DNA from: an uncultured Gammaproteobacteria bacterium
GTDB taxonomy: Bacteria; Patescibacteriota; Patescibacteriia; Magasanikbacterales; UBA922
DNA: 64,000 nt
NCBI GenBank assembly: GCA_965231005.1
Contig: OZ246405.1
Span: 610,709-674,708 of the forward strand
Direction: 5' to 3'
The position numbers were made by a program, and so were the translations under genes. The notes under the pieces were generated by a model. That model did no database searches and was not told where the DNA came from. It saw only the letters and a program-made list of their open reading frames with translations. Shown piece by piece: positions 7,982 through 36,302 of this stretch (position 1 is its first letter; each line of letters starts with the position of its first letter).

Positions 7982-8530
7982 TTATTGTTTTGCGATAATT
8001 GCAGTTACTTTATTCCCTTGTCGTGTGATTTCCTGGTCATATCTCAAAGACATATTTTCCTTTATACTAACGACAAAATCCTGGATAACTTCGTTTGCTA
8101 TATGAGTTTTAGCTCGTTCTCTTCCACGAAGGATAATTTCAATCTTTACCTTGTCTCCTCGATTGAGGAATTTTTCTGCTTGTGCTTTTCGGACATCTTT
8201 GTCATGTTGACCTATACGGATAGAAAGACGCACACCTTTTAAATCACTCACTTTAGATTTTGTTCGTTGTTTTCTGACTTCTTTTTCTTTTTGATATTTG
8301 AAATGCTTAAAATCTGTAATCTTTGCTACTGGAGGATTTGCTTTTGGATTTATTTCTACCAAATCAACTTCTTGTTCACGTGCAAGCTCAAGTGCTTTTT
8401 CTTTTGGCATGACACCAAGATTTGTATCATCACTATCAATAACTCGCAATTCAGGTGCTTGAATACGCTCGTTCAAATTAAAACGAGGTATGATTGGTGA
8501 TGGTTTTCTTTTTTTGCGGGATATTCTCAT
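7982..8530 (-). CDS. infC: translation initiation factor IF-3
   Basis: The motifs RFNLNERIQAPELRVIDSDDTNLGVMPKEKALELAREQEVDLVEI... and KVKIEIILRGRERAKTHIANEV are typical of IF-3. Start placed at ATG 8530, because the ORF-track start at 8578 would run into the tmRNA. Confidence 0.9.
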   Translation of the reverse strand: MRISRKKRKPSPIIPRFNLNERIQAPELRVIDSDDTNLGVMPKEKALELAREQEVDLVEINPKANPPVAKITDFKHFKYQKEKEVRKQRTKSKVSDLKGVRLSIRIGQHDKDVRKAQAEKFLNRGDKVKIEIILRGRERAKTHIANEVIQDFVVSIKENMSLRYDQEITRQGNKVTAIIAKQ

Positions 8531-8532
8531 AG

Positions 8533-8929
8533 TGGAGATGCCGGGAATTGAACCCGGGTCTAGACGGGTTAGCGTCATAATCTACATGCATAGCTGCTTT
8601 GTTGTTTCATATGATGCTAAAAAAGCAACAAAATAACATCATACTAAGCCTGAATTACTTCAGACAGCATTGTCAGGCAACAATGTTGTCCTACACTCGA
8701 AAAGTTGAGACCGCCGATCCACTATCGAGTATTATGGGGGCGATCGCCGTGGCACTTAAGCTACAGCAGTTGCGAGTGCTGGAGTGCTGAATGCGTTAGC
8801 AATAGCGCTCTTTACTCGATTGACTAAGTTTGCACTTATGTCTTGCCTTTGGGTATTTACGAGAACAAAGACATTCTCGACATGCATATGTACGATAACA
8901 AGATCCATCTATCGAATCCTGTCATCCCC
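8533..8929 (-). ncRNA. ssrA: tmRNA (SsrA)
   Basis: On the minus strand the 5' end is GGGGATGACAGGATTCGA. The 3' end is CCCGGGTTCAATTCCCGGCATCTCCA, a tRNA-Ala-like T-arm. The acceptor pairs GGGGATG/CATCTCC with the G3:U wobble. The internal tag reading frame ends ...GCA CTC GCA ACT GCT GTA GCT TAA (..ALATAVA*). smpB lies immediately upstream. Confidence 0.92.
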
Positions 8930-13869: not shown

Positions 13870-14067
13870 ATGTCCACAACAGTTCATCCAAAAGATAAAG
13901 ATACTAACAAACGTAATAAACGTTTGAATATTTTGATTGATGAATTACACAAAGAATTACGAGCAGTCCAAAAAGATGCGATTAGTCTCAGAATGAGTGC
14001 ACAAAAAGTTGTAGACAAGCAAAACATGAAGCACGTATTAGAGAAATTATTAGACAATGGTTCATAG
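13870..14067 (+). CDS. small coiled-coil hypothetical protein
   Basis: Start chosen at ATG 13870 (MSTTVHPKDKDTNKRNKRLNILIDELHKELRAVQKD...). The ORF-track start at 13813 would overlap the previous gene. Confidence 0.4.
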   Translation: MSTTVHPKDKDTNKRNKRLNILIDELHKELRAVQKDAISLRMSAQKVVDKQNMKHVLEKLLDNGS

Positions 14068-14083
14068 AATCATTCTTTTAACT

Positions 14084-17000
14084 ATGAGTCCAGATGCAAA
14101 CAATGTAGTCGAGTTATTTCCTGAAAATGAATATGGTCCTGATCGAGGACCTGTTAGTGATGAACAAAAAGAAGCCAATCGTAAGGCAAAAGGTGAGCTT
14201 GGTGATATTTTGAGAAAACTAGAAGATCTCCAATCATTGCGCGATAAAGTTGAAACAACACTTATTGAAGATGTTGAAGCACTTATTCAGCATATTAATA
14301 ATAAGGAATATCACGATGAAGTTGTTGTTCAAGTAAAAGAACTTCGAGAAAAACTCGACGAAATTAATAAAAAAATGGAAGGGGTTTCAAAGTCGATTGA
14401 AACACGAGAAGTGCGAAAGCAACGAGAGAGTTTTGAGTTTACAGTGTCAGATGTTCTTGATGTCGTCGGAAGAGATAAGCTGCGAAATATTATGGTTCAT
14501 TTTCCTGATATGAATGCAGGCGAGCGGCAGCAGGTGTTTACAGGACTTTTTGATCACCTGGATGAAGAACAATCCAAAAATTTAAATAGAGTAAGAAGAA
14601 AAAAAGCGTTCGAGGTGTTTGAACCTTTTTTTCAAACTGCAAAACAAAAAAAAGCATTGGACGAAGCAAAGCGCGCACCAAATGATCAAGTGAGAGTGAA
14701 ACTATTTGAAGCAGCAGGGCTTATTGAAGATGAGACTGACAGAGAAAACGTGCTTCATACACTTTCAGAAATTTCTTTTTCTGATGATGACAATAAAGCA
14801 TTTATTAAAACATGGAAAGATAATATGGCCTTGCAAGCGCTTGATTCTGTTGAGTTTTATGAATATGGTGCTGCAGAGCAAAAAGTATTAGAACTTGCAG
14901 CTATAGAGGCAAAAAAAGGAAAAAAGAAAAAGAAATATAAACAAACCAGTCTAAAACAAAAGTTTGTAAATCTTGGAAAAGGAATAAAAAATTTGGCAGT
15001 TGCAGCTGGACAGCATGTTAAAAAAGAGTGGTGGGCTATGGCTCCAGCTGCGACATTGGGTCTTGTTGCAAGACACGCTGCATTGTCAACAACTCCTGAT
15101 TTTTATGCAAAGGCACTTGAATTAACAGGGGATGAATCTCAGTCTGCATTTTTAGCAGCTGGTGGTGCAGCAGCACTTGGGACATATGCACTTGCAGAAC
15201 ATGGGATTCGAGCATTGAAAACTCGTCTTTCCGTAAAGCCTGACAAAGCATTTGCAGAAGTTTCTGGTTTGGCAAAAGACATGTACGTCTCTGATCAGAA
15301 AAAGGGTGGAGAATGGGTCCTTGCAGGACATATTAGTCATATATTGCAACATGGAGGAAAAGAAGGACAGCAAACACATGAACGGCATGTAGAAGTCCTC
15401 AAAGTAATTGCAAAAGAATTGAGAAAAAATGGAGAAAAAGTTGAAGCAAATAGTGAGTTTATGAAAGCAGCACTACTTGCTATTGATGTAAAGGATAGAA
15501 AACGTGGTGGACAGTCAATTCTTTCAGAAAAATACCAGTCTCTTGGATTTATTCGTCGGACTATTGCAGAGGTTCGCGATCAATTTTATACAAAAAAGTG
15601 GAAAGACATTGGTGTTGGTGGTTCTGCGTTACAATGGATGTCCGGTGCTGCATTACATACATTACACAAAGGCTTGATTGGTGGAACAATTGCATGGCCA
15701 ATGCAGCGACCAGAAATTTTTGGTTTGTTTAGTGAGCGATTGGCAGCACGCTTTGGTGCAGCTGCAGTACCTGGCTGGTTACAAGAATTAGCAACAAAAA
15801 GAGGGGAACAAAAAGAAGATAAATGGGAAATTGAGAGAAAACGTCTTGAAAAAGCAGTAAGTCCTGAAGCATATGGAAAATTAACTTTATATAAAGCAAC
15901 AAAAGTTTCAGAAGATCAATTGTTAGATATTCAAAGAGAAATCACAGAATTGAATTATTACATTAGCACCTGGAGTGATGTAAGCTCTCTCTCATCAGAT
16001 GGGAATAAATTAAAGCGTGCTGGAAGAAAAATTACAACCAATGTGCGTAAACAATTTCAAAGTGATTTGCTCGATGTGTGGCCACGGTATAAAACTGCTG
16101 CACTTGGTTTGCATCAAGAATATGAACGACTATATGAAGAAAAAAGACAGGAACTGATTGAAAAACAGTTAGCAAAAGTTTCCAAAAGTTTGTCAGAGGC
16201 AGGCAAAACAAAGCAAAGAGAAAAAATGCAAGAAGCCTTGCCGGAAAAATTGAAGAAACGAGAGAAAAAGAGAAATAAGAATATTCCGAAAAAGACATTT
16301 GACATGAAATTGCCAGATGAAAAAACACCAACAGAGCGATTGTTAGGAAATTCAAAAGTTGAGGTTGCTGATAGAAGAAAAACATTAGTACAAGGGTTGA
16401 AAATGGGAATGCTTGCTGCAGCATTTGGAAAGGCATTTGATATGGCACGAGTTCATTTTCCACATATTTTTGATAGACCACCAGAAGTCATTCCGCATGG
16501 CGCGTTTGCAGGTTGGGATGAAGATCCATTTATTGATCATGATCGGTATGACCAATATGGAAATGAAATTTTTCCAGACGATGCGTATCCGTCACAAGGA
16601 GAAGAAGCATCTCCGCCTGCTGAAACACCACAAGAACCAACTGTTCCAAAAAGAGATAGGACAAAAGAAGAAATTCGACGTCTTGCAGGTTTGGGTGGTC
16701 GTTCTGGTCGAGTTGAAGATATTCCAGTGCAGGGCGAAGACGCACTCGTGACAGAAAAAGACGAAGTTGCAAAAGGAACAGGACTTGATTCAAGTAAGGA
16801 TGGAAGTGCTGCACTCATTGGTGAACCAAAAGAACCAACATGGGAAGAAAAGATTGCAGAGCGTGGAAGTCCTGCAGAATCACTTTCAAAAACAGAACAG
16901 TACATGAAATATTTGATGAGAGAAGAACCTAAAAAATATTCAAAAGCAGATTTTAAATTATTTCAACACATGCAATCTATTTTGGAAAAACAAAATGAAT

Positions 17001-17332
17001 TTGTTGGAATTCGAGGAGTTCAATTGGATTCGTATCTCAGAGGAAAGGGGATAGATATGTCACTTCCTGAGGTGAGAGAACAATTTGAAAAAGTAGTCAC
17101 ACAGCACTATGATACTGTTCAAACATTTGAAAAGGGGATTATGCGTGGAAATACTATGAATACGCTAGAGAAGAAAATGAGAGAAATTATGCTTGGTTCA
17201 GAAGCTCTTAGCACAGATACTGATTTGTCTCGTTTTACTGGTTGGTTTGAAAGGGAAGTCCTTCCTCTATTCAAAAAGGCTGTTCATGCTGCTGAAGTCC
17301 GAAAGAGTAAGGCTGCTTTTCCACTAGAATAA
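14084..17332 (+). CDS. large (about 1080 aa) coiled-coil/membrane-associated hypothetical protein
   Basis: Long ORF with charged Lys/Glu-rich coiled-coil stretches and central hydrophobic segments (WWAMAPAATLGLVARHAALS, FLAAGGAAALGTYALAEHGI). No NTPase or enzymatic motif was recognised. The start at 14084 or 14057 is ambiguous. Confidence 0.65.
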   Translation: MSPDANNVVELFPENEYGPDRGPVSDEQKEANRKAKGELGDILRKLEDLQSLRDKVETTLIEDVEALIQHINNKEYHDEVVVQVKELREKLDEINKKMEGVSKSIETREVRKQRESFEFTVSDVLDVVGRDKLRNIMVHFPDMNAGERQQVFTGLFDHLDEEQSKNLNRVRRKKAFEVFEPFFQTAKQKKALDEAKRAPNDQVRVKLFEAAGLIEDETDRENVLHTLSEISFSDDDNKAFIKTWKDNMALQALDSVEFYEYGAAEQKVLELAAIEAKKGKKKKKYKQTSLKQKFVNLGKGIKNLAVAAGQHVKKEWWAMAPAATLGLVARHAALSTTPDFYAKALELTGDESQSAFLAAGGAAALGTYALAEHGIRALKTRLSVKPDKAFAEVSGLAKDMYVSDQKKGGEWVLAGHISHILQHGGKEGQQTHERHVEVLKVIAKELRKNGEKVEANSEFMKAALLAIDVKDRKRGGQSILSEKYQSLGFIRRTIAEVRDQFYTKKWKDIGVGGSALQWMSGAALHTLHKGLIGGTIAWPMQRPEIFGLFSERLAARFGAAAVPGWLQELATKRGEQKEDKWEIERKRLEKAVSPEAYGKLTLYKATKVSEDQLLDIQREITELNYYISTWSDVSSLSSDGNKLKRAGRKITTNVRKQFQSDLLDVWPRYKTAALGLHQEYERLYEEKRQELIEKQLAKVSKSLSEAGKTKQREKMQEALPEKLKKREKKRNKNIPKKTFDMKLPDEKTPTERLLGNSKVEVADRRKTLVQGLKMGMLAAAFGKAFDMARVHFPHIFDRPPEVIPHGAFAGWDEDPFIDHDRYDQYGNEIFPDDAYPSQGEEASPPAETPQEPTVPKRDRTKEEIRRLAGLGGRSGRVEDIPVQGEDALVTEKDEVAKGTGLDSSKDGSAALIGEPKEPTWEEKIAERGSPAESLSKTEQYMKYLMREEPKKYSKADFKLFQHMQSILEKQNEFVGIRGVQLDSYLRGKGIDMSLPEVREQFEKVVTQHYDTVQTFEKGIMRGNTMNTLEKKMREIMLGSEALSTDTDLSRFTGWFEREVLPLFKKAVHAAEVRKSKAAFPLE

Positions 17333-17539
17333 AAAATTAGCCCTTTGACTCGTCACTTCGTTCCTCGCTAAGGACAAGCAAAAAACAAAGAACAAAAAAC
17401 AAGTATTTTAATTGGTATTATTCTTGAAAAAAATTACTAAAATGGCTTAAATAAGTCATTTTTTTCATTTCTTTATGTTTCTTACCTTTTTACTTTTTAG
17501 CATTTTCGCTTTTTTGCATTTTTAGTGATTGCAAAGTAC

Positions 17540-17568
17540 TTGACAAAATGGTAAAAATATGGTACAGT
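17540..17568 (+). promoter_or_regulatory. sigma70-type promoter (TTGACA-N17-TGgTACAGT) of the first G+C-rich operon
   Basis: TTGACA at 17540-17545 and TACAGT at 17563-17568, with a preceding TG. The 34-nt block 17537-17570 is 32/34 identical to 21721-21754. Confidence 0.65.
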
Positions 17569-17791
17569 TTGCTGTTTACAGTGCCCATATTGTGTATGAG
17601 CAGCATTTGTTGTGATCTCTTAGATTGTGACAGTTGCCAAGCAATATTTTTTCGCTGAAGTAAGCTAAAAAGTGCTGTAAAAAAATGCACATTACAAATA
17701 CATGATGCACCTATGTGTATTGGATTAGTCAATCAATGGATATTCTTTTTGCTGTCTTTTGATTGACTAACCCAATCAAGGAGGTGCAGTC

Positions 17792-19882
17792 ATGTCACCA
17801 GATCAGAAAAAACCTGATGGTGGTGCACATGGTAGTGCACCGCCGAAACGATCAACACTCGAACTTCATGCTGACAAGATCGTCAGCTTGGTCCAACAAG
17901 ACGGGCCAGAGGAGAACCCCATGACCGACAAGAAGACTGATACAACAACGCCGGGTCATGAGGTTCATGATTCGAATTCTGAAACCCCACCCCCGCTGCC
18001 AAGTGTGCTCGACTCGCTTGCTCCTGAGGACATAGCAAGAATAATAAGAGGAGAATCACAACCACTGCGAAGTGAATTGGTGCGATGTCCGAACTGTGGT
18101 GCTGTCTACCCTATGGATCAGGGAAAGGTCCAGGGTGGTTCTGAAAAGGATCAACAGTGTGTGTTGTGCCTTCATGAATTCACCCTCGGTGATGACAATG
18201 AAGCACAAGCAACAGCACAGTCTGAAACCCCACCACCAGTGCCTTCTTCGAACGTTCCGGCGGACAATGAGAAAATCCAATGTCCGAACTGCAAAACCAC
18301 ATTTCGGTCCATTGAAATCCTGCTTTGGGATCGCAATTACAAGTACGTCGTCTGCAGCCACGGATTCACCATCGATAACGACACTGAAGCACAAGCAACA
18401 GCACAGTCTGAAACCCCACCCCCACCCCCACTTCCGCTTCTCATTGGGGACAATGCCCCAGGTGGGAAGAACGTGACTTGCCCAAACTGCGATAAGGTCT
18501 ATTCACTGGATCCAGCTGACTTTGTAGGTGGTTTCCCGAACGTCTTTCAGTGCGCCCTATGCAATCATTGCTTCACTATCGATGATGAAACTGACGCACA
18601 GGATGACACACCACCTGCAATTCCGACCGCGCAGCAGCGTGCAGACAGAACAGGACTGACTGAGCCGTACAAGCCACTCGCCGACATCAAAGATCCAGAT
18701 GCTGATACGTCCACGATTCGTGAAACCATGCCAAGTCACCCGGGCCAAGCTCGTCGCGCTGAAAGCGATCACTACACGCAGGATGAACTTCCTCGCGTGG
18801 AAGATGAACGTGAAACACGGCAAGACCTTCCTGTTGTCACTGGCGATGATCAAGACACCAAGCCTGACATGGACGTTGTCAAAGCCGAAGACCTCGATGA
18901 AGACGATGCTGCTGAACTGGAAAAGGATGATGGCAAGGAAGCTGAAGAGCTGCCCCCGCCGATTTCAAGTCCCATGTTCAGTCCGGAACTGCGCAAACCA
19001 AACCCTGGTTTTCAGCTGCCTCCTCATCTCGAAGAGGTCGTTCGACTCTCTGCTGCTTCAACTCCCGATTCTCTTGCTTCCGGCGATGACGATCCATTCG
19101 GCGACGGCGGAGATCCCTTTGCTGGCCCAGGCACGAATCCCTTTGCTGTTGACGCAGATGATCCCTTCGGTGCTGAAGTTCCGTTCGGTCCAGGAGATGA
19201 TCTTGGGATGAAGGACGAAGACTACGGTGGTCCGAATGATTCTGTCGACGATGGTGATGAATTGCCTCCTGTCATGCCGGCTGATTCCAGTAAGGCGGCT
19301 CCCAAGCCGTCGCTGATTACTGGTTCCAGACCAAGGTTTCGTCCGACTGGACCTGTGCCTTCGGTTCACGATCAAGACGACAAAAGTGGCCCCCCGCCTC
19401 CTCGTCGTCAAGATCATCGAAAGACAATCCGAGTTCCACGTCATCGGCCGACTGCTCGTCCAGTGCCACCACCACCTCCTGGCCCGGCTCCCATTCGAAC
19501 GCCGACGCCTAGTGGTGGTTCACCCATTCCTGCATCTGCACCTGTTTCTACTCCGCCTCCGGCTGCGAGTACAACAGGACCGTCTGCTGCACCAACCCAG
19601 GCTGCTGCGGCTCCGCCCGCACAGTCACAACCGCCGGCTCCAACTGGGCCAGTGGTTGGTCCGACGGCATCAAGTGGCAGTGCTACTACACCGGTCAAGA
19701 CCAACAAGACCGTTGTGTGGATCATCGCCATTCTGATTGTTGCATGCCTGGCTCTCAATGCCTTTAGCGTGTGGCAAAGCAGAAACATCAGAAAGAACGT
19801 CATCGCGGTTCTGAAACATCGCGCTGGCATCCAAAAGGTCATTCAGGCTCCAATGCCGAAGACCAAGGGGGAAGAGAAATGA
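17792..19882 (+). CDS. G+C-rich tail-anchored protein with three MJ0042-like zinc-ribbon repeats and a long Pro/Asp-rich disordered region
   Basis: ATG at 17792 is preceded by AAGGAGGTG. There are three CPNC...(C/H)xxC units (aa 99-270). Long acidic and Pro-rich low-complexity stretches follow. A single C-terminal TM helix is VVWIIAILIVACLALNAFSVW. The stop overlaps the next start (ATGA at 19879-19882). Confidence 0.75.
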   Translation: MSPDQKKPDGGAHGSAPPKRSTLELHADKIVSLVQQDGPEENPMTDKKTDTTTPGHEVHDSNSETPPPLPSVLDSLAPEDIARIIRGESQPLRSELVRCPNCGAVYPMDQGKVQGGSEKDQQCVLCLHEFTLGDDNEAQATAQSETPPPVPSSNVPADNEKIQCPNCKTTFRSIEILLWDRNYKYVVCSHGFTIDNDTEAQATAQSETPPPPPLPLLIGDNAPGGKNVTCPNCDKVYSLDPADFVGGFPNVFQCALCNHCFTIDDETDAQDDTPPAIPTAQQRADRTGLTEPYKPLADIKDPDADTSTIRETMPSHPGQARRAESDHYTQDELPRVEDERETRQDLPVVTGDDQDTKPDMDVVKAEDLDEDDAAELEKDDGKEAEELPPPISSPMFSPELRKPNPGFQLPPHLEEVVRLSAASTPDSLASGDDDPFGDGGDPFAGPGTNPFAVDADDPFGAEVPFGPGDDLGMKDEDYGGPNDSVDDGDELPPVMPADSSKAAPKPSLITGSRPRFRPTGPVPSVHDQDDKSGPPPPRRQDHRKTIRVPRHRPTARPVPPPPPGPAPIRTPTPSGGSPIPASAPVSTPPPAASTTGPSAAPTQAAAAPPAQSQPPAPTGPVVGPTASSGSATTPVKTNKTVVWIIAILIVACLALNAFSVWQSRNIRKNVIAVLKHRAGIQKVIQAPMPKTKGEEK

Positions 19883-21558
19883 ATACGTTTATCAAGGTGC
19901 TACTCGCCATTCTCATCGGGGTTGTGGTCGCTGTGTCCGGCTACTTCGCATGGGAAACCATGAACACGAACAAGGCGCTCCTCGCTGAACTGAACAAGAC
20001 CGACAACGGTGCCCAGGAGGACACCAAGGTCAAGCCGGCGCCGAAGAAGTCGGCTGTCAAGAAAGCTGACAAGGCTTCCACGTCCCAGGCCAAGACGGCC
20101 GGCGACAAGAACGACCCCAAGAAGGTCGAGGAAGCTGCGAAGGCTGCCGAAGCCAAGAAGAAGGCCGAGGCCGAAGCTGCTGCCAAGGCTGCTGAAGCGA
20201 AGAAGAAGGCTGACGAAGCTCGCAACGACTGGGATGAAATCAACTCCCGTGGCGACGACCAACTCAGAGCTGAGAAGTTCGACGAAGCGTTCAAGACCTT
20301 CAAATCCTTGATCGGACACGAGCATCAGAATCATGGACTGGCTTACTACAACATCGCCTGCCTGTTCTCGGTGCAGTCTGTGTCAGACAAGCTCAAGGGC
20401 AAGAAGAAGGCGATTCGCAAGAGCAAGAAGCAAGCCCTCCACTACCTGGCTCAGGCCTGGGTAGCCGGCTACGACGACCTCGAATGGATGGAGAAAGACG
20501 AGGATCTCGATTCGATCCGCAAGACCCGCGGCTACAAAGAGATCAAGCGTCTGGCAGTGGAAAAGGGACTGGTTCGGCTCCCTGCGCCGGCCACCGAAGA
20601 CGTCGCCAAGAAGGCCAAGGATGAGCAGAAGGAACCCACGCCCAAGCTGACCGGCATCCACGCCCTGCGTGCCATGCCGATCAAGGGAGTTGCCGATTCT
20701 GACGAAGCCAGCAAGGCTGACAAGGACGCCAAGCGCATCGCCAACGCCAACGCCAAGAAGGTCAAGGGCAAGAAGGTTCGCAAAGGCAGCCGCGGCATCT
20801 CGTTCCTGGCCAAGGCTCGAGCCGAAGCCAAGCGGATGTACGCCAAGCTCCACAAGGACCAGAAGGCTCGTCGTGCAGCGCTCAACCGTGCGATCGCCCG
20901 ACTCAAGCGTGGCTACAAGCGCAAGAGCGATCTTGACAAGCAGGACGTTGACGACGAGATCGCAGAGCTCAAGCGAAAGGAGCAGGAACAGTCCGACGAC
21001 GAGGATCGGAAAGCCAAGGAAGAGGCCGAAAGGATGCTCGCCGACGGCAAGACCCAAGACGAGGTCAAGGCTATGTACGATGCTCTGGAGCGCAAGCAAC
21101 AGGCTCGTCGTGCAGCGCTCCTCAGCAAGATCGCGGACGAGCAAAGGCAGGCACGACAGCAGCGTCAGGATGATGCAGTCGACCTTCGCGATGAGATCGC
21201 CAAGCTGCGCGAAGCCGACAAAAAGGCTGACACGCAGTCCGCGGCAGCTGCCAAGGATCACGTGCAAGCCTTGTTCGACAAAGCGCAAGCCGCGACCAAC
21301 CGCGCCAACGCAAAGCGCGCGCGTCAACAGCGTCAGCGTGCGGCAGCGCCCTCGCGTCCGAGCTCGCCGCCCAGCCGTCCGGCTTCGGGTGGTTCGTCCA
21401 GCCTCGCACATGCGCCTGCGGCAGTTTCCAGCTGTCCGTATGGTGGAGACGAGGCCAACTGCGTCAAGAAGACGGTCGCGTACTTGACCAAGTTCGGTAC
21501 GCCCCTGGCCGATGCCAAGGGGAGTGCCAAGGCCAAGTGCAGCGCGCGCTGTCTGTAG
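19879..21558 (+). CDS. G+C-rich N-terminally anchored Lys/Ala-rich coiled-coil protein with a TPR-like segment and a C-terminal 4-Cys module
   Basis: Start ATG 19879 (MNTFIKVLLAILIGVVVAVSGYF is a TM anchor). A TPR-like block is YYNIACLFS...ALHYLAQAWVAGYDDLEWMEKDEDLDSIR. The C-terminus is CPYGGDEANCVKKTVAYLTKFGTPLADAKGSAKAKCSARCL. Confidence 0.72.
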   Translation: MNTFIKVLLAILIGVVVAVSGYFAWETMNTNKALLAELNKTDNGAQEDTKVKPAPKKSAVKKADKASTSQAKTAGDKNDPKKVEEAAKAAEAKKKAEAEAAAKAAEAKKKADEARNDWDEINSRGDDQLRAEKFDEAFKTFKSLIGHEHQNHGLAYYNIACLFSVQSVSDKLKGKKKAIRKSKKQALHYLAQAWVAGYDDLEWMEKDEDLDSIRKTRGYKEIKRLAVEKGLVRLPAPATEDVAKKAKDEQKEPTPKLTGIHALRAMPIKGVADSDEASKADKDAKRIANANAKKVKGKKVRKGSRGISFLAKARAEAKRMYAKLHKDQKARRAALNRAIARLKRGYKRKSDLDKQDVDDEIAELKRKEQEQSDDEDRKAKEEAERMLADGKTQDEVKAMYDALERKQQARRAALLSKIADEQRQARQQRQDDAVDLRDEIAKLREADKKADTQSAAAAKDHVQALFDKAQAATNRANAKRARQQRQRAAAPSRPSSPPSRPASGGSSSLAHAPAAVSSCPYGGDEANCVKKTVAYLTKFGTPLADAKGSAKAKCSARCL

Positions 21559-21578
21559 TCTGATCTGGTGAGAACCTG

Positions 21579-21660
21579 GCTTCCCGGTGCTCGTACGTTT
21601 ATTCGTACTTGCATCGGGAAGCCTCCTCACTTTCTTCTTTTTCTTGAAAAGAGGGGAAAG
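21579..21660 (+). terminator. 3' cassette module: G+C-rich hairpin followed by a CT/AG hairpin
   Basis: GGCTTCCCGGTGC...GCATCGGGAAGCC spans 21579-21623. CTTTCTTCTTTTTCTTGAAAAGAGGGGAAAG spans 21631-21660. Confidence 0.5.
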
Positions 21661-21723
21661 CAGGGAAAATACCTTATTTAAGCCAAAAAAGATAAGTTTT
21701 TATGGTCTATAAAGCCTAAATAC

Positions 21724-21752
21724 TTGACAAAATGGTCAAAATATGGTATAGT
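21724..21752 (+). promoter_or_regulatory. sigma70-type promoter (TTGACA-N17-TGgTATAGT), near-identical copy of the 17540 promoter
   Basis: TTGACA at 21724-21729 and TATAGT at 21747-21752, with an extended -10 TG. Confidence 0.65.
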
Positions 21753-21943
21753 TTCTGGTCAAAATTGATAAAATATATACCCTTATCTATTGGCGTGCCA
21801 GTGCATAATCCATGCAATATGCAGTGCGCGCGAGTGTGATAAGGTACAGAAAATGTACATCGTACATTCTTTGTGTGTCACACCGCTTTCCAGACGTTTT
21901 AACGTCATCCAACAGGTTCATTACATTACTACATCACTACAAC

Positions 21944-22086
21944 TGTTCGATCGGTAAACAAGTTCATAATATTTGTGTACTGCTTTACCGGTCGAACATT
22001 TCACATCGCCTTTCTGACCGGGGGCACAGTTAATTCCAAGGTACGTTACCAAGGAACAAATTGACTGCGCCTGGTTTTCTGGGCGA
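21944..22086 (+). promoter_or_regulatory. conserved structured 5' leader element, copy 1 (143 nt)
   Basis: It aligns along its length with 24885-25027. The long stem is GTTCGATCGGTAAA / TTTACCGGTCGAAC. Further hairpins have conserved stems and variable loops. It lies 27 nt upstream of the ATG at 22113. Confidence 0.6.
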
Positions 22087-22112: not shown

Positions 22113-23402
22113 ATGGCGTACGCCGTTCGAAAAACCCGATCCGGGGGTGCCGGACAATACGTTTCAGTTTTTTCCGACCGTGCTGCGGTTCTCCGAAAAA
22201 TCGCGCGAGGGATGATCCGCAAGGGTGCGTTCATTCGCGTGGTTCCGGACACGGCTGCTACCAACGATGGCGAGAAGGCCGCAGTCAAGGCTGATCTGGA
22301 TAACGCGGATTTCGTGCTCATCGAGAACCATCCGCATTTCGCTGGCATCAACTTCCCGGCGCCTGCTGACGCTTCGGCTGCTGCGACTGCGGATGCTGCG
22401 GCCACCCGTGCGAATGCCAATGCTGCTGCGGCCAATGTGACCGTTGCGGAGGCTACTGCTGCTCAGGCTCAAACCGAAGCCGACGCTGCTAACGCTCGTG
22501 CCAACGCTGCTGATGCCGCCACTGCTCAGGCCAACGCCGAGGCTACTGCTGCTCAGGCTCGTGTCGACGTTGCCAACGCTGCTGCTGCTCAGGCCAACGC
22601 CGAGGCTACTGCTGCTCAGGCTGCTGGGGATGCTGACGCTCAAGTTGCTGCTGCAGAGGCTGTTGCGGAGGCTGCTGCTGCTCAGGCCGATGCTGCTCAG
22701 GCACATGCCGACGCGGTTCAGGCTGCTGCGGATGCTGCTCAGGCTGCTGCGGATGCTGCTGACGCTGCTACCCAGGCTGGTGCTGCTGCCGGTCAGGCTC
22801 TGATCGCTACCAGTCAAGCTCGGGATGCTGCTGCTGAGGCTGAGGCTGAGGCGCTCGAGGCACAGGCCGATGCGGACGATGCTGCTGCCTTTGCTCAGGC
22901 TCAGGCCGACGAGCGGGCCAATCGCCGTTCGGTTCGGTTCGTCGCGTGGCTGCGTCGCAACTGGAAGAAGGTTCTGCTGGCTCTGCTGGTTCTCCTCCTT
23001 CTCGGTTGCGTGTGGTTCTTCTGGAGCAACATCAAGGCCCTGGTCACGGGGGGTGGTGGTTCGCCGCCGCCTTCGGTGGTGAACCCGCCGACCCCACCGA
23101 CGCCGCCCGTTCCGACGCCGCCCGTTCCGCCGCCGCCGGCTGCGACTCCGGTCGTTCCGCCGCCGACGGTGACGCCTCCGCCACCGCCCGCGACTCCGCC
23201 GGTTTCGCCGACGGTCACGCCTCCGCCGACCCCGCCGACTTCGGGGGGCACGGCAGCGCCGACTGGACAGCCTGGCTGTCCGTTCGGTGTGGGGTACACG
23301 GACTGTTACACCAAGACGGTGGCCTACCTGGTCAGCCATGGTGTGGCGACTTCGGACGCGCAGGACAAGGCGCGCGAGAAGTGCGGACCGCGTTGCAGGT
23401 GA
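22113..23402 (+). CDS. G+C-rich Ala-rich repeat protein with a central TM helix, a Pro/Thr-rich linker and a C-terminal 4-Cys module
   Basis: ATG is preceded by AAGGAGGTG. Repeats of the AAAQANAEATAAQA type occur. TM helix WKKVLLALLVLLLLGCVWFFW. A PPTPPTPPVPTPPVPPPP linker follows. The C-terminus is CPFGVGYTDCYTKTVAYLVSHGVATSDAQDKAREKCGPRCR. Confidence 0.72.
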   Translation: MAYAVRKTRSGGAGQYVSVFSDRAAVLRKIARGMIRKGAFIRVVPDTAATNDGEKAAVKADLDNADFVLIENHPHFAGINFPAPADASAAATADAAATRANANAAAANVTVAEATAAQAQTEADAANARANAADAATAQANAEATAAQARVDVANAAAAQANAEATAAQAAGDADAQVAAAEAVAEAAAAQADAAQAHADAVQAAADAAQAAADAADAATQAGAAAGQALIATSQARDAAAEAEAEALEAQADADDAAAFAQAQADERANRRSVRFVAWLRRNWKKVLLALLVLLLLGCVWFFWSNIKALVTGGGGSPPPSVVNPPTPPTPPVPTPPVPPPPAATPVVPPPTVTPPPPPATPPVSPTVTPPPTPPTSGGTAAPTGQPGCPFGVGYTDCYTKTVAYLVSHGVATSDAQDKAREKCGPRCR

Positions 23403-23410
23403 TGTAGCCT

Positions 23411-23500
23411 GTTGGAGGGAAGCCCGCTACCGGCGCATGCATTCGTGTGTGTGTCCGGTAGCCCTCCAACCGCTTTCTTTTATAAAAGAGAAAGAGGTTG
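23411..23500 (+). terminator. 3' cassette module: G+C-rich hairpin plus an overlapping CT/AG hairpin
   Basis: GTTGGAGGG (23411-23419) pairs with CCCTCCAAC (23462-23470). CCAACCGCTTTCTTTT...AAAAGAGAAAGAGGTTGG (23465-23500) reuses the 3' arm, so the two structures are mutually exclusive. Confidence 0.5.
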
Positions 23501-23824
23501 GGGGAATACAAAATTAGAAATTGGAAATTAGGGATTAAGTGTATTGACATATTGAGTAATAGAGAAAAGAAATTTTCTTTAGTACTCAGGGTGTCATGTA
23601 GACATTATTGTAAAATTACAATGTGTCTCGTGTCCTGATTAGACAGGTTCATTATAATTTAGTTGAAGAATAACTATCTGGTGGGTAAAAAGATAATATA
23701 CATATGTTACTTTTTTTCTCACCAGATAGTGGCACGTGCCGCTTGTTTCTTCGTCGCCCTTGGGGCATTTCACAAATGGCCCCATCGGTGAGGAGGGGCA
23801 AGGCAACAACAACAGGAGGACGCG

Positions 23825-24724
23825 ATGAACATCCGTCTCGTTTCGTTCATGATCGTCGCATCGGTGACGGTCGGTTTCATTTCCATCAACTCATTCGCGC
23901 AGGCACCGGCCGACTACCCAGCCGTTCGCGACGATGCGCACAAGGGTGCTTCGCTCGCCGAGTCCAACGCCAAGCGCCTGACCGCCCTGGAGAAGCGGAT
24001 CAAGCGGCTCAAGCGCGCCAAGGCTGCGGCCAAGGCCAAGCACACGGCCAACCCGACCCCCGCCAACAACGTCGCTCTGAAGGCCGCGGTCCGCGCGCTC
24101 GACGAGGCCAAGAAGGCAGGTCTGTCCATGTGCGCCCTGAAGACTGGCGAGGATTTCCGGCACTGCATCGACGTCGTGGAAGGCAAGGTGTTCGAGGTGG
24201 AGAAGGACTCCATCCGGATGGCCGCGCTGCTCGCAGTCGGCTGCATCGTGAAGGAGAACAAGTCCACAGATCCTTCCAAGGGTTCGAAAAAGGGCGCATC
24301 CATCACGACCACCGAGCTCGTCTGCGACAAGGACAAGGCCAAGAAGGCGCCGCGCTGCATCCGGTTCAAGCGCTTCAGCAAGCACGCGCACACCTACTTC
24401 GACGTCGGCGGTGACAACTGCAAGGAAGAAGACAGCAACCCGCTGCCCAAGAAGCCGGCGACTCCGCCCAAGCCCAAGGCCGAACCGTGGTCCAAGGGCA
24501 AGCGTTTGCTGGCCAGCGCTGGCATGTGCCTGCTGGCCGGTGGTGTGCTCGCTGTTCCTGGTTACGTCATCGGCGACGCCATCGAGGGCGGTCACTGGGA
24601 GACCAATCCGGAGACCGGCAACGACGACTGGTATGCGCCCAAGGGTCCGCTCGGTGCTGGCATCGGCGGTCTGACCGGCTGCCTCAGCGCGTTCGCGGGC
24701 ACATGGAGTGCGACGAGCGAGTAG
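23825..24724 (+). CDS. G+C-rich secreted/membrane protein, function unknown
   Basis: ATG is preceded by AGGAGG. Signal peptide MNIRLVSFMIVASVTVGFISINSFAQA. Lys/Ala-rich helix. Several Cys residues. C-terminal hydrophobic Gly-rich segments (LLASAGMCLLAGGVLAVPGYVIG; GAGIGGLTGCLSAFAG). Confidence 0.68.
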   Translation: MNIRLVSFMIVASVTVGFISINSFAQAPADYPAVRDDAHKGASLAESNAKRLTALEKRIKRLKRAKAAAKAKHTANPTPANNVALKAAVRALDEAKKAGLSMCALKTGEDFRHCIDVVEGKVFEVEKDSIRMAALLAVGCIVKENKSTDPSKGSKKGASITTTELVCDKDKAKKAPRCIRFKRFSKHAHTYFDVGGDNCKEEDSNPLPKKPATPPKPKAEPWSKGKRLLASAGMCLLAGGVLAVPGYVIGDAIEGGHWETNPETGNDDWYAPKGPLGAGIGGLTGCLSAFAGTWSATSE

Positions 24725-24748
24725 CCTTTCTTCAACTGCTGAATCTGT

Positions 24749-24826
24749 CGGGGGTTGGTAGCATGTTCATTCATGTCTGTCAACCCCCGTCGGAATATCT
24801 TTCTCTTTGTAAAAAGGGAGAGATGA
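24749..24826 (+). terminator. 3' cassette module: G+C-rich hairpin followed by a CT/AG hairpin
   Basis: CGGGGGTTG (24749-24757) pairs with CAACCCCCG (24781-24789). ATCTTTCTCTTTGTAAAAAGGGAGAGAT spans about 24797-24826. Confidence 0.5.
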
Positions 24827-24884
24827 ACGATTATTGTTCATTACAATTGAGAAACTACTACAGAAACATCTTGAATACCTTTTG

Positions 24885-25027
24885 TGTTCGATCGGTAAAC
24901 AAGTACATAACATTTGTGTACTGCTTTACCGGTCGGACATTTCCACATCGCCTTTTTGACCGGGGGCACAGTTAATCCGTGGCGTGTTGCCGCGGACCAA
25001 ATTGACTGCGCCTGAGAAATTGGGCGA
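24885..25027 (+). promoter_or_regulatory. conserved structured 5' leader element, copy 2 (143 nt)
   Basis: Homologous to 21944-22086. The stem substitution A to G keeps pairing as G-U. One hairpin is replaced by CCGTGGC-GTGTT-GCCGCGG. It lies 44 nt upstream of the ATG at 25072. Confidence 0.6.
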
Positions 25028-25071: not shown

Positions 25072-28000
25072 ATGAACAGCAAGCTCAACACGATTTCCGT
25101 TTGTTTCGTGGCGCTGATGATCGTTTTCGGGTGCAGCCCGGACGCGAGCTACAAGCCCAACGACCCCAAGAACCCCAACCCGGCCCGCAAGGCCGATGCC
25201 AACAACAGCGACACCAGCAGCGCGGATGCGGGTTCGAGCGCGGATACCGGTCAGCCGACCGATCCGTGCGCCGATCCCAAGTTCTGCAACGATGGCAAGG
25301 TCTGCACGGCCGACACCTGCAAGGACGGCAAGTGCAAGCACACCATCGACGCGACGCTCTGTGATGACGGCAACCCCTGCACACATGACCTGTGTGACGA
25401 CCTGGGGATCTGTGTGAACAAGGCTCACGAAGGTTCGTGCCAGGACGGGAATGCCTGTACTGTGGGTGATCATTGCAAGAATGGCACCTGCCAGTCGGGA
25501 AAGAACATGCCCTGTCCCAACGAGAACTCGTGTGTCATCGCAACCTGCAACCCGAAAGAAGGCAAGTGCAACTACGAGCCCAAGAGCGGTGACTGCAACG
25601 ACGGCAACAAGTGCACGGTTGGCGATTTCTGCATCAACCAGAAGTGCAAGAGCGGTTTCAAGAAGTTGGACTGTGATGACAAGAACGTGTGCACGACTGA
25701 CAGCTGCAATCCAGAAGACGGTTGTGTTCACAAGCCGATCGACCTTCCCTGCAGCGACAACAGCTCGTGTACCATCTCGGATAAGTGCAAGGACGGAAAA
25801 TGCGTGGGCCAGGTTGTCAACTGCGACGACAAGAACCCGTGCACGACCGACTCGTGCGATCCGGCGGCGCCCCCGGGCAAGGCATGCAAGCACGTGAACA
25901 ACACCAGCGAGTGCGACGACGGCAACAAGTGCACGTCCGGCGACGTTTGCCAGGATGGTCAGTGTAAGAAGGGAACCACGTCGGTCGATTGCGACGACGG
26001 GAACCCGTGCACTACCAATTCCTGCGACGCCAAGGTCGGCTGCCAGAAGCTCAACAACAACAACTCGTGCGACGACGGCAACAACTGCACCATCAATGAC
26101 AAGTGCTTTAACGGCAAGTGCAACTCCACTACCAAGAAGTGTGGCGACAGCAACAAGTGCGTCACCAACACGTGCGACCAGGCAACTGGCGCGTGTGTGA
26201 AAAAGGAGCTGTGCGACGACGGCAAGGCCTGCACCGAAAACACGTGCGACATCAACACCGGCAAGTGCGAAAACCCTGACAAGAAGTGCGACGACGGCAA
26301 GGCCTGCACCAAGGATAGCTGCAACACCACCACGGGCAAGTGCGAGTACGAGATGATCGTTGGTGCGAACTGCTTCTGCAAGTTCGACTCCAACTGTGAC
26401 GACGGAAACGAGTGCACTGTCAGCGCATGCGATAAGGCGACTGGCAAATGCGCGCTCGCGAAGAAGTACAGCGGGACCTCGTGTGACGACGGGAACCCGT
26501 GCACCACCTCGGACAAGTGCGACCCCAAGACCGGCAAGTGCTCGTCGGCAAAGGCCACGGCCTGCGACGACGGGAACCCCTGCACGGACGACTCCTGCGA
26601 CCCCACGGTCGTTGGCGGTTGTGTGGCGGTGAAGAACAACAAGCTGTGTGACGACGGTGACGCGTGCACCAAGGGTGATATCTGCCTGGACGGCGCGTGT
26701 AACCCCGGCAAGGCCCCGGTCTGCGACGACGGCAACATCTGCACGGATGACAGCTGTGACTCGAAGCTCGGATGCAAGAACACGGCCAACTCGGCCAGCT
26801 GCTCGGATGGGAGCGCCTGCACCTCAAACGACAAGTGCGAGGGCGGGAGCTGCAAGAGCGTTGCGGTGAAATGCGACGACTCCAACCCCTGTACCGACGA
26901 TAGCTGCGACGCGAAGGTCGGCTGCAAGTACGCCAAGAACACCAAGCCGTGTAACGACGGTGACGAGTGTACCATCAGCGAGGTGTGCAAAGACGGCAAG
27001 TGTGGTTCTGGCAAGGCCAAGTCGTGCGACGACAACAAGAAGTGTACCATCGACTCGTGCGACAAGGACAAGGGCTGCCAGCACAAGCAGATTTCCTCGG
27101 CGACCTGCTGCGCTTCGGACGCTGAGTGCGACGATAAAAAGCCGTGCACGGTGGACAAGTGCGATCCGAAGGAAGGTTGCAAGAACACCAAGAAGCTCTG
27201 CTCGGACAACAACCAGTGCACCGACGACGTGTGTGATCCCCAGTCTGGAGATTGCAAGCACACGAAGTTCAGTGGACCGGCCTGCGACGACGGCAACAGT
27301 TGTACCAAATCCGAGAAGTGCGAAAAGGGCAAGTGCGAAGCTGGCTTTACCATCAAGTGCAACGACAACAAACCCTGCACCAAGGATACGTGCGACACCA
27401 AGGGCGGATGCGTCTTCACCAAGACCGTGGATCCCTGCGACGACGGGGACGCGTGTACGAATGGAGACAAGTGCGCCAATGGCGAGTGCGTGTCTGGCAA
27501 GCAGATCGTCTGCGACGACAACAAGGTCTGCACGACCGACAGCTGTGACTCCAAGAAGGGGTGCGTGTTCGCGAACAATTCGGATGCCTGTACGGACGGA
27601 AACGCCTGTACACCGAATGACGTCTGCAAGGACGGCAAGTGCTCGTCGCAGCCTGAGAACTGTGACGACGCGAACGCGTGTACCAACGACAGTTGTGACA
27701 AGAGCAAGGGCTGCAAGCACATCAACAACACCAAGGTCTGCAACGACGGCAACAAGTGTACGGACAACGGAGTCTGCAGTGGCGGCGCCTGCAAGCCGGG
27801 CAAAGCCATCAACTGCGACGACGGCAAGAAGTGCACGACGGATAGCTGTGACCCGACCACGGGCAAGTGCAAGAACGTGGCGCTGGTGTGCGATGACGAC
27901 GCCTGTACGGATGGCGATGGCAAGTGTGACGAGAGCACGGGCAAGTGTGCAGTGGGTCTTCCCAAGAACTGCACTGACACCGACGTGTGTACCAAGAATT

Positions 28001-28593
28001 TCTGCTCGGAAGGAACCTGCAAGGTCTCTCCGAACTGCGATGACGGGAACGCATGCACGGCTGATAGCTGTGACCCAAAGAAGCCCGAGAAGGATCAGTG
28101 TTCGCACGTCCCGATCTCGGGTTGCAAGTCGGTCGAGGTCAAGCTCTCCGTGGTTTTTTCTGAGATGTTCAAGATGGAAGCCGCACCCAAGGGTGGCAAC
28201 TACGTCCGGTTCTTCGTCAAGAAGTGCGAGGCCAAGGCTGCTGACGGCTCGTCCGTCATGTTGCTCAAGCCTGGCTCCTTCTACGGAGGCGCTGAGATCA
28301 AGAACAGCTCGAAGCTCGAGTACACCAATCCTGCAAAGGTCCAGGACTTCGTGCAGATCCCGAAGAATGCCTGCTGCATCAACATCGTAGGGTACCAAAG
28401 CAGTAAGATCTCCAATCCTTACGGGGACTCGAAGATCTGGGCTTTCAGTACGACTCCCAATACCAAGACCCACAACATGGAGCCGGTCCTCACGACCAGC
28501 AATGGACTGACGTACAAGTTCACGTTGAAAGACGTCCATGACAACGGTGTGGGGGGATACGACGCGTGCAACAGCGAAGTCATCTCCAAGTAG
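25072..28593 (+). CDS. G+C-rich giant Cys-rich repeat lipoprotein (CDDGNxCTxDxC-type repeats, roughly forty copies) with a distinct C-terminal domain
   Basis: The N-terminus MNSKLNTISVCFVALMIVFGC is a probable lipoprotein signal. From about aa 66 to 985 there are ~24-aa units in two alternating flavours: CDDxNxCTxDxCDxxxGCxH and CxDGNxCTxxDxCxxGxC. The last ~180 aa are non-repetitive. Confidence 0.85.
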   Translation: MNSKLNTISVCFVALMIVFGCSPDASYKPNDPKNPNPARKADANNSDTSSADAGSSADTGQPTDPCADPKFCNDGKVCTADTCKDGKCKHTIDATLCDDGNPCTHDLCDDLGICVNKAHEGSCQDGNACTVGDHCKNGTCQSGKNMPCPNENSCVIATCNPKEGKCNYEPKSGDCNDGNKCTVGDFCINQKCKSGFKKLDCDDKNVCTTDSCNPEDGCVHKPIDLPCSDNSSCTISDKCKDGKCVGQVVNCDDKNPCTTDSCDPAAPPGKACKHVNNTSECDDGNKCTSGDVCQDGQCKKGTTSVDCDDGNPCTTNSCDAKVGCQKLNNNNSCDDGNNCTINDKCFNGKCNSTTKKCGDSNKCVTNTCDQATGACVKKELCDDGKACTENTCDINTGKCENPDKKCDDGKACTKDSCNTTTGKCEYEMIVGANCFCKFDSNCDDGNECTVSACDKATGKCALAKKYSGTSCDDGNPCTTSDKCDPKTGKCSSAKATACDDGNPCTDDSCDPTVVGGCVAVKNNKLCDDGDACTKGDICLDGACNPGKAPVCDDGNICTDDSCDSKLGCKNTANSASCSDGSACTSNDKCEGGSCKSVAVKCDDSNPCTDDSCDAKVGCKYAKNTKPCNDGDECTISEVCKDGKCGSGKAKSCDDNKKCTIDSCDKDKGCQHKQISSATCCASDAECDDKKPCTVDKCDPKEGCKNTKKLCSDNNQCTDDVCDPQSGDCKHTKFSGPACDDGNSCTKSEKCEKGKCEAGFTIKCNDNKPCTKDTCDTKGGCVFTKTVDPCDDGDACTNGDKCANGECVSGKQIVCDDNKVCTTDSCDSKKGCVFANNSDACTDGNACTPNDVCKDGKCSSQPENCDDANACTNDSCDKSKGCKHINNTKVCNDGNKCTDNGVCSGGACKPGKAINCDDGKKCTTDSCDPTTGKCKNVALVCDDDACTDGDGKCDESTGKCAVGLPKNCTDTDVCTKNFCSEGTCKVSPNCDDGNACTADSCDPKKPEKDQCSHVPISGCKSVEVKLSVVFSEMFKMEAAPKGGNYVRFFVKKCEAKAADGSSVMLLKPGSFYGGAEIKNSSKLEYTNPAKVQDFVQIPKNACCINIVGYQSSKISNPYGDSKIWAFSTTPNTKTHNMEPVLTTSNGLTYKFTLKDVHDNGVGGYDACNSEVISK

Positions 28594-28640
28594 TTCTCAA
28601 GAAAATGATCACTCCCTCCTGCGCAATGTGATCTGCCGTG

Positions 28641-28712
28641 GACGGGCTCGAGCCTGAAACTCGAGTCCGTCCCGGCCGCGCAACTCCGAATATGATTCAC
28701 GTCTATTCGGAG
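28641..28712 (+). terminator. two G+C-rich hairpins closing the island
   Basis: GACGGGCTCGAG-CCTGAAA-CTCGAGTCCGTC spans 28641-28671. CTCCGAATA-...-TATTCGGAG spans 28684-28712. Confidence 0.45.
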
Positions 28713-28774
28713 CTCCCCAAGGTTCATTTTTCCTCAGAAAAGTGGACACTTGTAAGAGTTAAACATAGGTACAG

Positions 28775-36142: not shown

Positions 36143-36302
36143 GGTTTTTTACCTAAAATAAGCTAAATTAGTGTACTCATAATAACATATAATTGTACCA
36201 CATTTAAGCGTTTTTGTCAAGTCCTCGGGCTGGTCTTTGAGATATAAAAAAATGGCTTAAATAAGCTATTTTTTAAAGACTGGAAATTTACATTTTTTTG
36301 TC

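Follow-up and report, generated by a model that had tools for sequence, protein, structure and literature searches.

Two near-identical 34-nt sequences that resemble bacterial promoters lie in front of separate transcription units of a GC-rich island in an uncultured bacterium, which GTDB places in the Magasanikbacterales of the Patescibacteriota (assembly GCA_965231005.1, contig OZ246405.1). The island was analyzed within a 64-kb stretch of this ~1.23-Mb genome (contig positions 610,709 to 674,708), hereafter called the window, and all positions are counted from the first nucleotide of that stretch. Taken by themselves, the small size, AT-richness, and gene content of the genome would suggest a bacterium of the CPR/Patescibacteria type. 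The two sequences, termed P34a (17537-17570, + strand; TACTTGACAAAATGGTAAAAATATGGTACAGTTT) and P34b (21721-21754, + strand; TACTTGACAAAATGGTCAAAATATGGTATAGTTT), are in our judgment probably paralogous, active promoters for the housekeeping sigma factor that were derived from intergenic DNA of the recipient type. We propose that a recipient-type spacer carrying a terminator and a promoter entered the island by duplication or recombination and that selection would afterwards have kept only the promoter proper. The first two units of the island, TU1 and TU2, would thereby receive similarly strong transcription. An initial annotation of this DNA had already interpreted the pair as host-type promoters recruited for foreign open reading frames (ORFs). 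That interpretation appears to be largely right. It was too narrow in its definition of the copied unit, and the promoter activity that it assumed is deduced from consensus matches.

Two predicted promoters of near-identical sequence

P34a and P34b are identical at 32 of 34 positions (94%). The two differences are A/C at 17553/21737 and C/T at 17565/21749. Their number was reported correctly in the initial annotation, as were the coordinates of both copies. An independent metagenome assembly in the European Nucleotide Archive (ENA; L036, project PRJEB17505) contains both 34-mers with the same two differences, and an assembly of a second run of that project (L037) contains copy 1. No further copy with three or fewer mismatches exists in the window, and 100 dinucleotide-preserving shuffles produced no match to the 34-mer, giving a chance expectation of 0. 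When 11 promoter-like sites of the window were aligned at their -35 elements, the P34 pair shared 32 of 34 positions, compared with a mean of 17.7 and a maximum of 27 for the remaining 54 pairs. Outside the 34-mer, in-register identity is at background (1-5 of 10) directly upstream and returns to background by ~6 nt downstream.

Each copy reads as an extended -10 promoter, as had been recognized at the outset. P34a carries the -35 hexamer TTGACA at 17540-17545, a 17-nt spacer, TGg at 17560-17562, and the -10 hexamer TACAGT at 17563-17568, with a predicted start near 17575. The corresponding elements of P34b are TTGACA at 21724-21729, a 17-nt spacer, TGg at 21744-21746, and TATAGT at 21747-21752, with a predicted start near 21759. 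Both have the TG dinucleotide, and their hexamers match the consensus at 10 of 12 positions (TTGACA-17-TACAGT, P34a) and 11 of 12 positions (TTGACA-17-TATAGT, P34b). They are the top-scoring promoter-like sites on the + strand between 13 and 31 kb, and both are intergenic and located upstream of a gene on the same strand. The defining spacing of sigma70/sigmaA-type extended -10 promoters, with -35 and -10 hexamers 16-18 bp apart and TG one base before the -10 element, is present in both. On the + strand, the stretch from each promoter to its gene is free of called terminator-like sites. The two leaders fold, though neither contains a GC hairpin followed by a T-run. We therefore treat P34a and P34b as near-consensus sigma70/sigmaA-type promoters whose activity is predicted.

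The TATGg that precedes each -10 element we take to be the TRTG -16 motif of Bacillus subtilis-type promoters. Relative to extended -10 promoters of the TGn or Gram-positive TRTG -16 type, nothing structural differs: a perfect -35 element, a 17-bp spacer, TATGg, and a -10 element with T1, A2, and T6 are all in place. What is unusual here is the near-identity of the two copies and the length of their structured leaders (215-355 nt). The A-rich spacers are likewise conserved, with 16 of 17 positions identical between the copies.

Native promoters in the window follow the pattern (c)TTGACA(aa)...tgGTAnnnT. Examples are found on the - strand at 7056 (before a small ORF and tRNA-Asp), at 7875 (before rpmI-rplT), and at 9235 (before tmRNA), and P34-like patterns also occur at 36220 (-), 39939 (-), 4484 (+), and 56087 (+). 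The -35 context of the pair, CTTGACAAAA, is present at 4483-4492 (+) and ~7876-7867 (-), in agreement with an earlier observation. Because native promoters share this pattern, "host-type" is a fair term for P34. A T-rich phased tract, TTTTnGCnTTTTCGCTTTTTTGCnTTTT, stands upstream of P34a (17495-17531, +). It is 84% identical to a tract at 40126-40170 (+) that precedes a native promoter-like site, TTGACT, at 40169, and may represent a motif of this genome akin to an UP element or to curved DNA.

AT-rich promoter patches in a foreign island

The island, which spans 17.8-28.7 kb with its right end at ~28720, has a GC content of ~58%, compared with ~35% for the window. Third-position GC (GC3) of its genes 1-5 is 0.45, 0.72, 0.60, 0.84, and 0.82, respectively, and that of host genes is mostly 0.2-0.3 (median ~0.25). 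At fine scale, the P34 promoters are located in patches of 20-35% GC amid island coding sequence of 55-70% GC. Thus the native-like pattern of the promoters and the compositionally foreign character of the genes downstream both agree with the recruitment originally proposed.

Among the island proteins, only that of gene 5 has relatives. It shows 34-45% identity to several thousand Dicty_CTDC proteins, and those with a named source derive mostly from metagenome-assembled genomes (MAGs) of Myxococcales/Deltaproteobacteria. The island therefore has two properties by which horizontally acquired regions are recognized, namely deviating composition and codon usage and a gene whose closest relatives reside in another lineage. 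Its genes were probably acquired from a high-GC, Myxococcota-like lineage. On two sampled contigs that carry gene 5 homologs (71-73% GC), the upstream regions are also ~70% GC and show no resemblance to the island leaders or to the P34 promoter. This indicates that AT-rich promoter patches are not a trait of the donor lineage. Homologs of genes 2 and 4, sought for the same upstream comparison, were absent from a collection of 5.8 billion proteins. Slow amelioration cannot explain the patches either, because GC3 in the island is still 0.6-0.84. Taken together, the failure of amelioration as an explanation and the lack of such patches in donor-like genomes point to recipient-derived DNA.

The abrupt changes in composition are not artifacts of assembly. 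Separate assemblies reproduce the left junction (L036 and L037) and the right junction (L043, L044, and L045) at 99.99-100% identity, which means that the GC jump does not stem from a chimeric assembly. The island lacks common hallmarks of mobility. No tRNA is present at either edge, and no integrase, recombinase, or transposase domain was detected when genes 1-5 and the flanking genes covered by the scan were searched against Pfam and NCBIfam. Searches of viral contigs and plasmids likewise gave no match that would tie the promoter, leader, or island to a phage or plasmid.

A palindrome shared with a native spacer

It had been proposed that the flanks of the two promoters are dissimilar and that the promoter was copied as a unit. 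In-register identity at background and the sharp edges of the 34-mer agree with this view, but a sensitive self-comparison revealed an exact 13-mer, TGGCTTAAATAAG, upstream of both copies. The palindromic block that contains it accompanies both promoters and also a native spacer at 36.2 kb, which makes it uncertain that the promoter alone was the copied unit. The 13-mer occurs three times in the window, at 17443-17455 (+), 21673-21685 (-), and 36253-36265 (+), compared with a roughly estimated ~0.01 exact copies expected; with up to two mismatches allowed, 6 copies were found and 2.6 were expected from shuffles. In the intergenic DNA of the window, the palindrome core CTTA-W3-TAAG exists only at these three places. 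The 13-mer lies 75 nt upstream of the -35 element of P34a, 38 nt upstream of that of P34b, and 28 nt upstream of that of the native promoter at 36220 (-).

This native promoter also resembles P34 more closely than any other native one in the window (25/34 and 24/34). It belongs to a module at 36185-36274 (-), in which a -35 element (36220-36215) and a -10 element (TACAAT, 36197-36192) precede a gene at 36142-34970. The palindrome of the module (36274-36249, -) follows a small membrane ORF ending at ~36305 and has a folding free energy (dG) of -5.5 kcal/mol (z -2.8). Upstream of P34a, the palindrome AAAATGGCTTAAATAAGTCATTTTTT with a U7 tail (17439-17464, +; dG -7.6 kcal/mol, z -4.8) is likely the host intrinsic terminator of the gene at 14057-17332. 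Both elements are composed of an A-run, a hairpin, and U7, and both are located ~30-110 nt past a host stop codon. They are plausible AT-rich intrinsic terminators.

The palindrome beside P34b (21666-21685, -) matches the 36.2-kb copy at 19 of 20 positions and has the same orientation to its promoter, and it folds on neither strand. Because this relic no longer functions as a folded element, its preservation speaks for ancestry, not for selection. These observations suggest that the AT-rich patch with P34b descends from a host terminator-plus-promoter spacer, and they point to a larger host intergenic module, not just 34 nt, as the source of the copied block. A variant palindrome, CCTTATTTTAGCAA, is found at 4453-4465, 18 nt upstream of the promoter at 4484 (+). 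As judged from its sequence and placement, TGGCTTAAATAAG may serve as a terminator, an operator, or the core of a repeat family.

P34-like sequences in other bacteria

A sequence shared by foreign genes could in principle be a repeat that travels among taxa. The core TTGACAAAATGGT-N6-ATGGTA, a pattern that already fixes 19 bases, was scanned in 185,579 species genomes (596 Gb). It was matched in 34 unrelated genomes (Clostridia, Patescibacteria, "Gammaproteobacteria" MAGs, and others), once in each, and all 34 matches run on into a TATAAT-like -10 element. Several of them (for example, L018, L004, L006, and L019) are identical to P34 over 25-29 nt, and one of these (L018, 7140-7170) derives from a Candidatus Magasanikbacteria MAG (JACPGS010000001.1). 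The look-alikes in L018, L004, and L006 give the weak impression of being placed mostly before genes for small secreted or membrane proteins whose GC3 is above that of neighboring genes. Other contexts are different and include an apparent RNase P RNA and apparent tandem stable-RNA promoters. Genes and leaders downstream of the foreign matches are related neither to each other nor to the island. Among JGI metagenomes a stricter core yielded four unrelated, single-copy matches, and it yielded none among viral contigs. An apparent excess of A-rich spacers of the form xAAAAT among the matches was reduced to a mild one by taking account of their own column frequencies (6 observed, 2.1 expected; P~0.02).

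Given single-copy matches with unrelated contexts, genes, and leaders, we reject a dispersed repeat or mobile cassette common to many taxa. The P34 sequence instead appears to be near a general promoter optimum that many bacteria have reached independently, and not a transferable element. For the two island copies, common descent would be favored by their proximity, by a similarity above that of every other promoter pair in the window, and by the shared 13-mer block.

Transcription units of the island

The island is organized as four units: TU1 (genes 1 and 2), TU2 (gene 3), TU3 (gene 4), and TU4 (gene 5). In the proposed scheme, P34a would initiate at ~17575 and transcribe the translationally coupled genes 1 and 2 through a structured leader of ~215 nt, and this transcription would end at two very stable hairpins. 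P34b would initiate at ~21759 and transcribe gene 3 through a leader of ~355 nt. The double hairpin after gene 2 (21578-21664, +; z -8.0) has a GC-rich stem followed by a CUUUCUU..AAAGAG stem and separates TU1 from TU2. P34b starts 57 nt past these hairpins, and TU2 accordingly needs a promoter of its own. Similar double-hairpin terminators are present after gene 3 (23426-23504, +; z -6.9) and gene 4 (24744-24825, +; z -6.6), and hairpins also follow gene 5 (28620-28712, +). After genes 2-4, the GC-rich stem is followed by a U-rich tract whose U-run pairs with an A-run, and the second hairpin of each unit has a similar sequence (CTTTCTYTTT...AAAGRGRAAAG). ENA contigs end at hairpin points, specifically at 23501 and at 24722/24731.

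The predicted TU1 leader (17575-17791, +) is structured (z -5.8 relative to shuffles), and its GCACCT at ~17710-17715 (GCACCU in the RNA) can pair with the AGGTGC Shine-Dalgarno region. The TU2 leader contains a 143-nt structured module (21944-22086, +; z -7.4 relative to shuffles) before gene 3. A second copy of this module (24885-25027, +; z -10.0) precedes gene 5, and the two copies are 88.6% identical over 131 nt (24885-25014 of copy 2). They adopt the same two-domain fold, in which the stems are conserved and the loops differ, and the hairpin at 22035-22057/24975-24997 has at least one compensatory pair. No Rfam family matched the leaders at its gathering score, and only two chance-level hits were obtained at E<=1. 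We consider the module a candidate for a new cis-regulatory or stabilizing element of 5' untranslated regions.

A short motif, (ACA)GGTTCATTAYA, occurs once in each of the intergenic regions IG2-IG5, at 21912-21925, 23643-23656, 24835-24845, and 28720-28731 (all +). In IG2-IG4 it is followed by a -10-like TAYAAT/TACATT without a -35 element. Its shorter form, GGTTCATTAYA, was considered as a second promoter or cassette boundary and rejected, given that it has no -35 element and is not enriched across the window (8 observed, 7.3 expected). The motif might be what is left of an ancestral cassette start, or else a weak second promoter.

The proteins encoded by the island are secreted or membrane repeat proteins. 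Gene 1 (17792-19882, +) specifies MJ0042-type zinc ribbons, Pro-rich tracts, and a C-terminal membrane helix, and gene 2 (19879-21558, +), which overlaps it through an ATGA stop/start, encodes an N-terminal helix, a TPR-end domain, and coiled coils. The product of gene 3 (22113-23402, +) is Ala/Pro-rich, with a transmembrane segment and a C-terminal four-Cys domain in common with gene 2. This domain spans 47 residues (21511-21555 and 23356-23399; 43% identity, E 1e-9) and follows the pattern CP[YF]G..C..KTVAYL...KC..RC. Genes 2 and 3 are otherwise unrelated, and no Pfam or NCBIfam family matched the domain. Gene 4 (23825-24724, +) encodes a secreted orphan, and gene 5 (25072-28593, +) a lipoprotein with 18 Dicty_CTDC Cys-rich repeats. 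The island is flanked by a 1091-aa host gene (14057-17332) on one side and a Wzy-like gene on the other, and the surface-polysaccharide locus around it has many Wzz/Wzy and glycosyltransferase genes.

Alternative explanations

Several of our findings weigh against a recipient-derived, duplicated promoter. Promoter activity is predicted from the match to consensus. Moreover, the sigma70 consensus is nearly universal, and hexamers alone cannot separate recipient-type from donor-type promoters. The region between the palindrome and promoter anchors aligns weakly in MAFFT (~60%). The palindrome distances differ (75, 38, and 28 nt) and its orientation is opposite at copy 1, and homology at the level of the module is therefore suggestive. 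TU3 and TU4 have no comparable P34-type promoter upstream (+ strand scan, 13-31 kb), which means that the island is not uniformly served by the P34 module. The identical 25-29-nt strings in unrelated bacteria imply that selection alone pushes promoters toward this sequence, and such convergence weakens, without removing, the argument that the two island copies descend from one sequence. In addition, the comparison covers 64 kb of a ~1.23-Mb genome, and we know of no mechanism for copying exactly 34 bp.

A shared operator is an alternative that we regard as doubtful but worth keeping in mind, and it is compatible with promoter function. A regulator would bind in or next to the 34-mer, either at the direct repeat ATGGTA/C-N5-ATGGTA, whose halves are one helical turn apart, or at the TGGCTTA..TAAGCCA palindrome located upstream, and TU1, TU2, and the glycosyltransferase gene at 36.2 kb would constitute a surface-structure regulon. 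Such a site would explain why the 16 spacer positions were kept, given that spacers normally vary, as in the native pair at 4484 (+) and 7209 (-), and why the 13-mer is exact, including its loop bases, at all three promoters and nowhere else in the intergenic DNA of the window. Recent duplication accounts equally well for the spacer identity, however, and at two sites the palindrome is readily understood as a terminator that follows a stop codon. Its three distances from the -35 element do not correspond to a single fixed activator position, and neither the island nor the genes beside it were found to encode a DNA-binding protein. It is unlikely that the 34-mers are instead direct repeats (like attL/attR) left by a 4.15-kb segment (leader, gene 1, gene 2, and terminators) that integrated at a pre-existing promoter. 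The repeats are direct and sharp-edged and bracket exactly one complete unit, and the GC3 of gene 1, unlike that of the rest of the island, fits a separate acquisition. Yet the limits of the repeat are those of the promoter (3 nt before the -35 element to 2 nt after the -10 element), which is explained by selection and not by recombination. The five island proteins and scanned flanking genes include no integrase, recombinase, or transposase domain of the kind that would be expected within or adjoining a segment bounded by att sites, and no variant free of the island or of the segment exists in the independent assemblies.

Independent convergence of the two promoters on one optimum, with no common ancestry, seems very unlikely to us. 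Spacers are A-rich in general, and the core functions as an apparent promoter in 34 unrelated genomes, some identical to P34 over 25-29 nt. These look-alikes were nevertheless selected from 596 Gb with 19 bases fixed in advance, and the additional spacer match is only mildly enriched (6 against 2.1). No other promoter pair of the window exceeds 27/34, and the P34 copies are neighbors in one island with a second block in common. We find it highly improbable that the 34-mer resides in a small non-autonomous element, such as a miniature inverted-repeat transposable element (MITE) or the remnant of an insertion sequence (IS), that was inserted twice with its promoter facing outward or inward. A weak 27-nt inverted repeat does surround P34b (21687-21713/21765-21791; 70% complementary, cores AGATAAG/CTTATCT), but such complementarity is near the chance level in AT-rich DNA, no equivalent repeat surrounds P34a, and the flanks of the two copies are unrelated. 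Neither shared terminal inverted repeats with a target-site duplication nor a nearby transposase, by which an IS- or MITE-borne promoter would be recognized, was found, and viral contigs and plasmids provided no match. We thus continue to favor paralogous promoters that originate from a recipient-type spacer. The direction and the mechanism of copying, like the host origin of the patches, are deduced from the arrangement of the sequences, and duplication and recombination would each be compatible with it.

A second promoter pair and other features of the window

Another near-duplicated promoter pair was encountered at 4480-4519 (+) and 7174-7213 (-), where the inverted copies (CCCCTTGACA...TGTGCTATACTGTnTTGT) match at 27 of 34 positions in register. 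The hexamers of this pair, at 4484 (+) and 7209 (-), are kept and the spacer is not conserved. The promoter at 4484 (+) precedes a lone 275-aa ORF (4596-5423, +; GC ~0.59) that has no Pfam match and looks like a second, single-gene foreign GC-rich insert. Near-duplicates of promoters before apparently foreign genes are thus seen twice in 64 kb. The promoter at 7209 (-) is followed by a long, GC-rich hairpin of ~95 nt with a T-run (~7170-7075, -) and no ORF. No Rfam family matched this hairpin at the gathering threshold, and it is a candidate small RNA upstream of the small basic ORF and tRNA-Asp.

A 128-nt inverted repeat (3780-3907/11418-11545; 90% complementary) built from short units of the TAGTTA/TAGCTA type brackets 7.5 kb containing the GC-rich ORF, tRNA-Asp, rplT-rpmI-infC, tmRNA, and smpB, and might mark an invertible or rearranged segment. 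The tmRNA (8530-8929, -) has an unusually long predicted tag peptide, ANLVNRVKSAIANAFSTPALATAVA. Elsewhere in the window, the host gene at 53457-54524 contains three tandem 204-nt repeats (53697-54308, +; 77-83% identity), implying that it encodes a repeat-containing surface protein.

Relation to known cases of promoter reuse

To our knowledge, almost no promoter-level information exists for uncultured, reduced-genome bacteria. Elsewhere, promoter propagation and reuse have been documented: >4000 families are on record in which non-homologous genes share a near-identical upstream sequence, and most of these families are pairs with ~92% identity (PMC3488235; PMC3575422). Like these putative mobile promoters (Matus-Garcia, Nijveen and van Passel 2012; PMC3488235; PMC3575422), the P34 pair is a similar noncoding stretch before non-homologous genes of one genome (gene 1 versus gene 3, E = 1.3; gene 14057-17332 versus gene 2, E = 3.6). 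The published families have likewise been read as activating or rewiring silent or newly acquired genes, and most have two members, with ~92% identity compared with 94% here (PMC3488235). The counting thresholds for such families are an alignment of at least 50 nt, at least 80% identity, and a position no more than 150 nt from the start codon (PMC3488235). In contrast, the P34 block is conserved over only 34 nt with flanks at background, and is positioned 222-392 nt upstream of the start codons, with the two 34-mers ending 222 and 359 nt before them. P34 would work like a mobile promoter yet does not reach the published thresholds, which the 143-nt leader module would satisfy.

In experimental-evolution studies that offer a parallel in mechanism, transferred genes are reported to have become expressed after gaining recipient-type promoter sequences (e.g., PMC6614815, PMC11111574). 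The resemblance to the island is that foreign coding sequences have recipient-type promoters upstream. The reported events arose in the laboratory in model bacteria (point mutations, duplications, and IS insertions), whereas the arrangement seen here is natural and already fixed, is present in an uncultured small-genome bacterium, and involves foreign units that each have strong terminators of their own. The locus is a clean, unsurprising case of a recipient-style promoter reused for foreign genes. It is not a new kind of element, because promoter reuse before unrelated genes has been described genome-wide since 2012.

An improbable extension of these ideas is that the 34-mer and TGGCTTAAATAAG form a portable terminator-plus-promoter cassette that has been copied repeatedly before newly acquired GC-rich genes. 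If true, copying would have to be an active process, or a dedicated regulator would have to be involved, instead of a single duplication event. The cassette, the duplicated leaders, and the double terminators would then together make up a modular and insulated system for expressing, and so domesticating, foreign surface proteins. How horizontally acquired genes come to be expressed in new hosts is a real question, for which this locus provides a clear natural example. Besides predicted start sites, it offers a small set of parts for work on gene expression in such organisms: the promoter, the 143-nt structured leader, and the double terminators.

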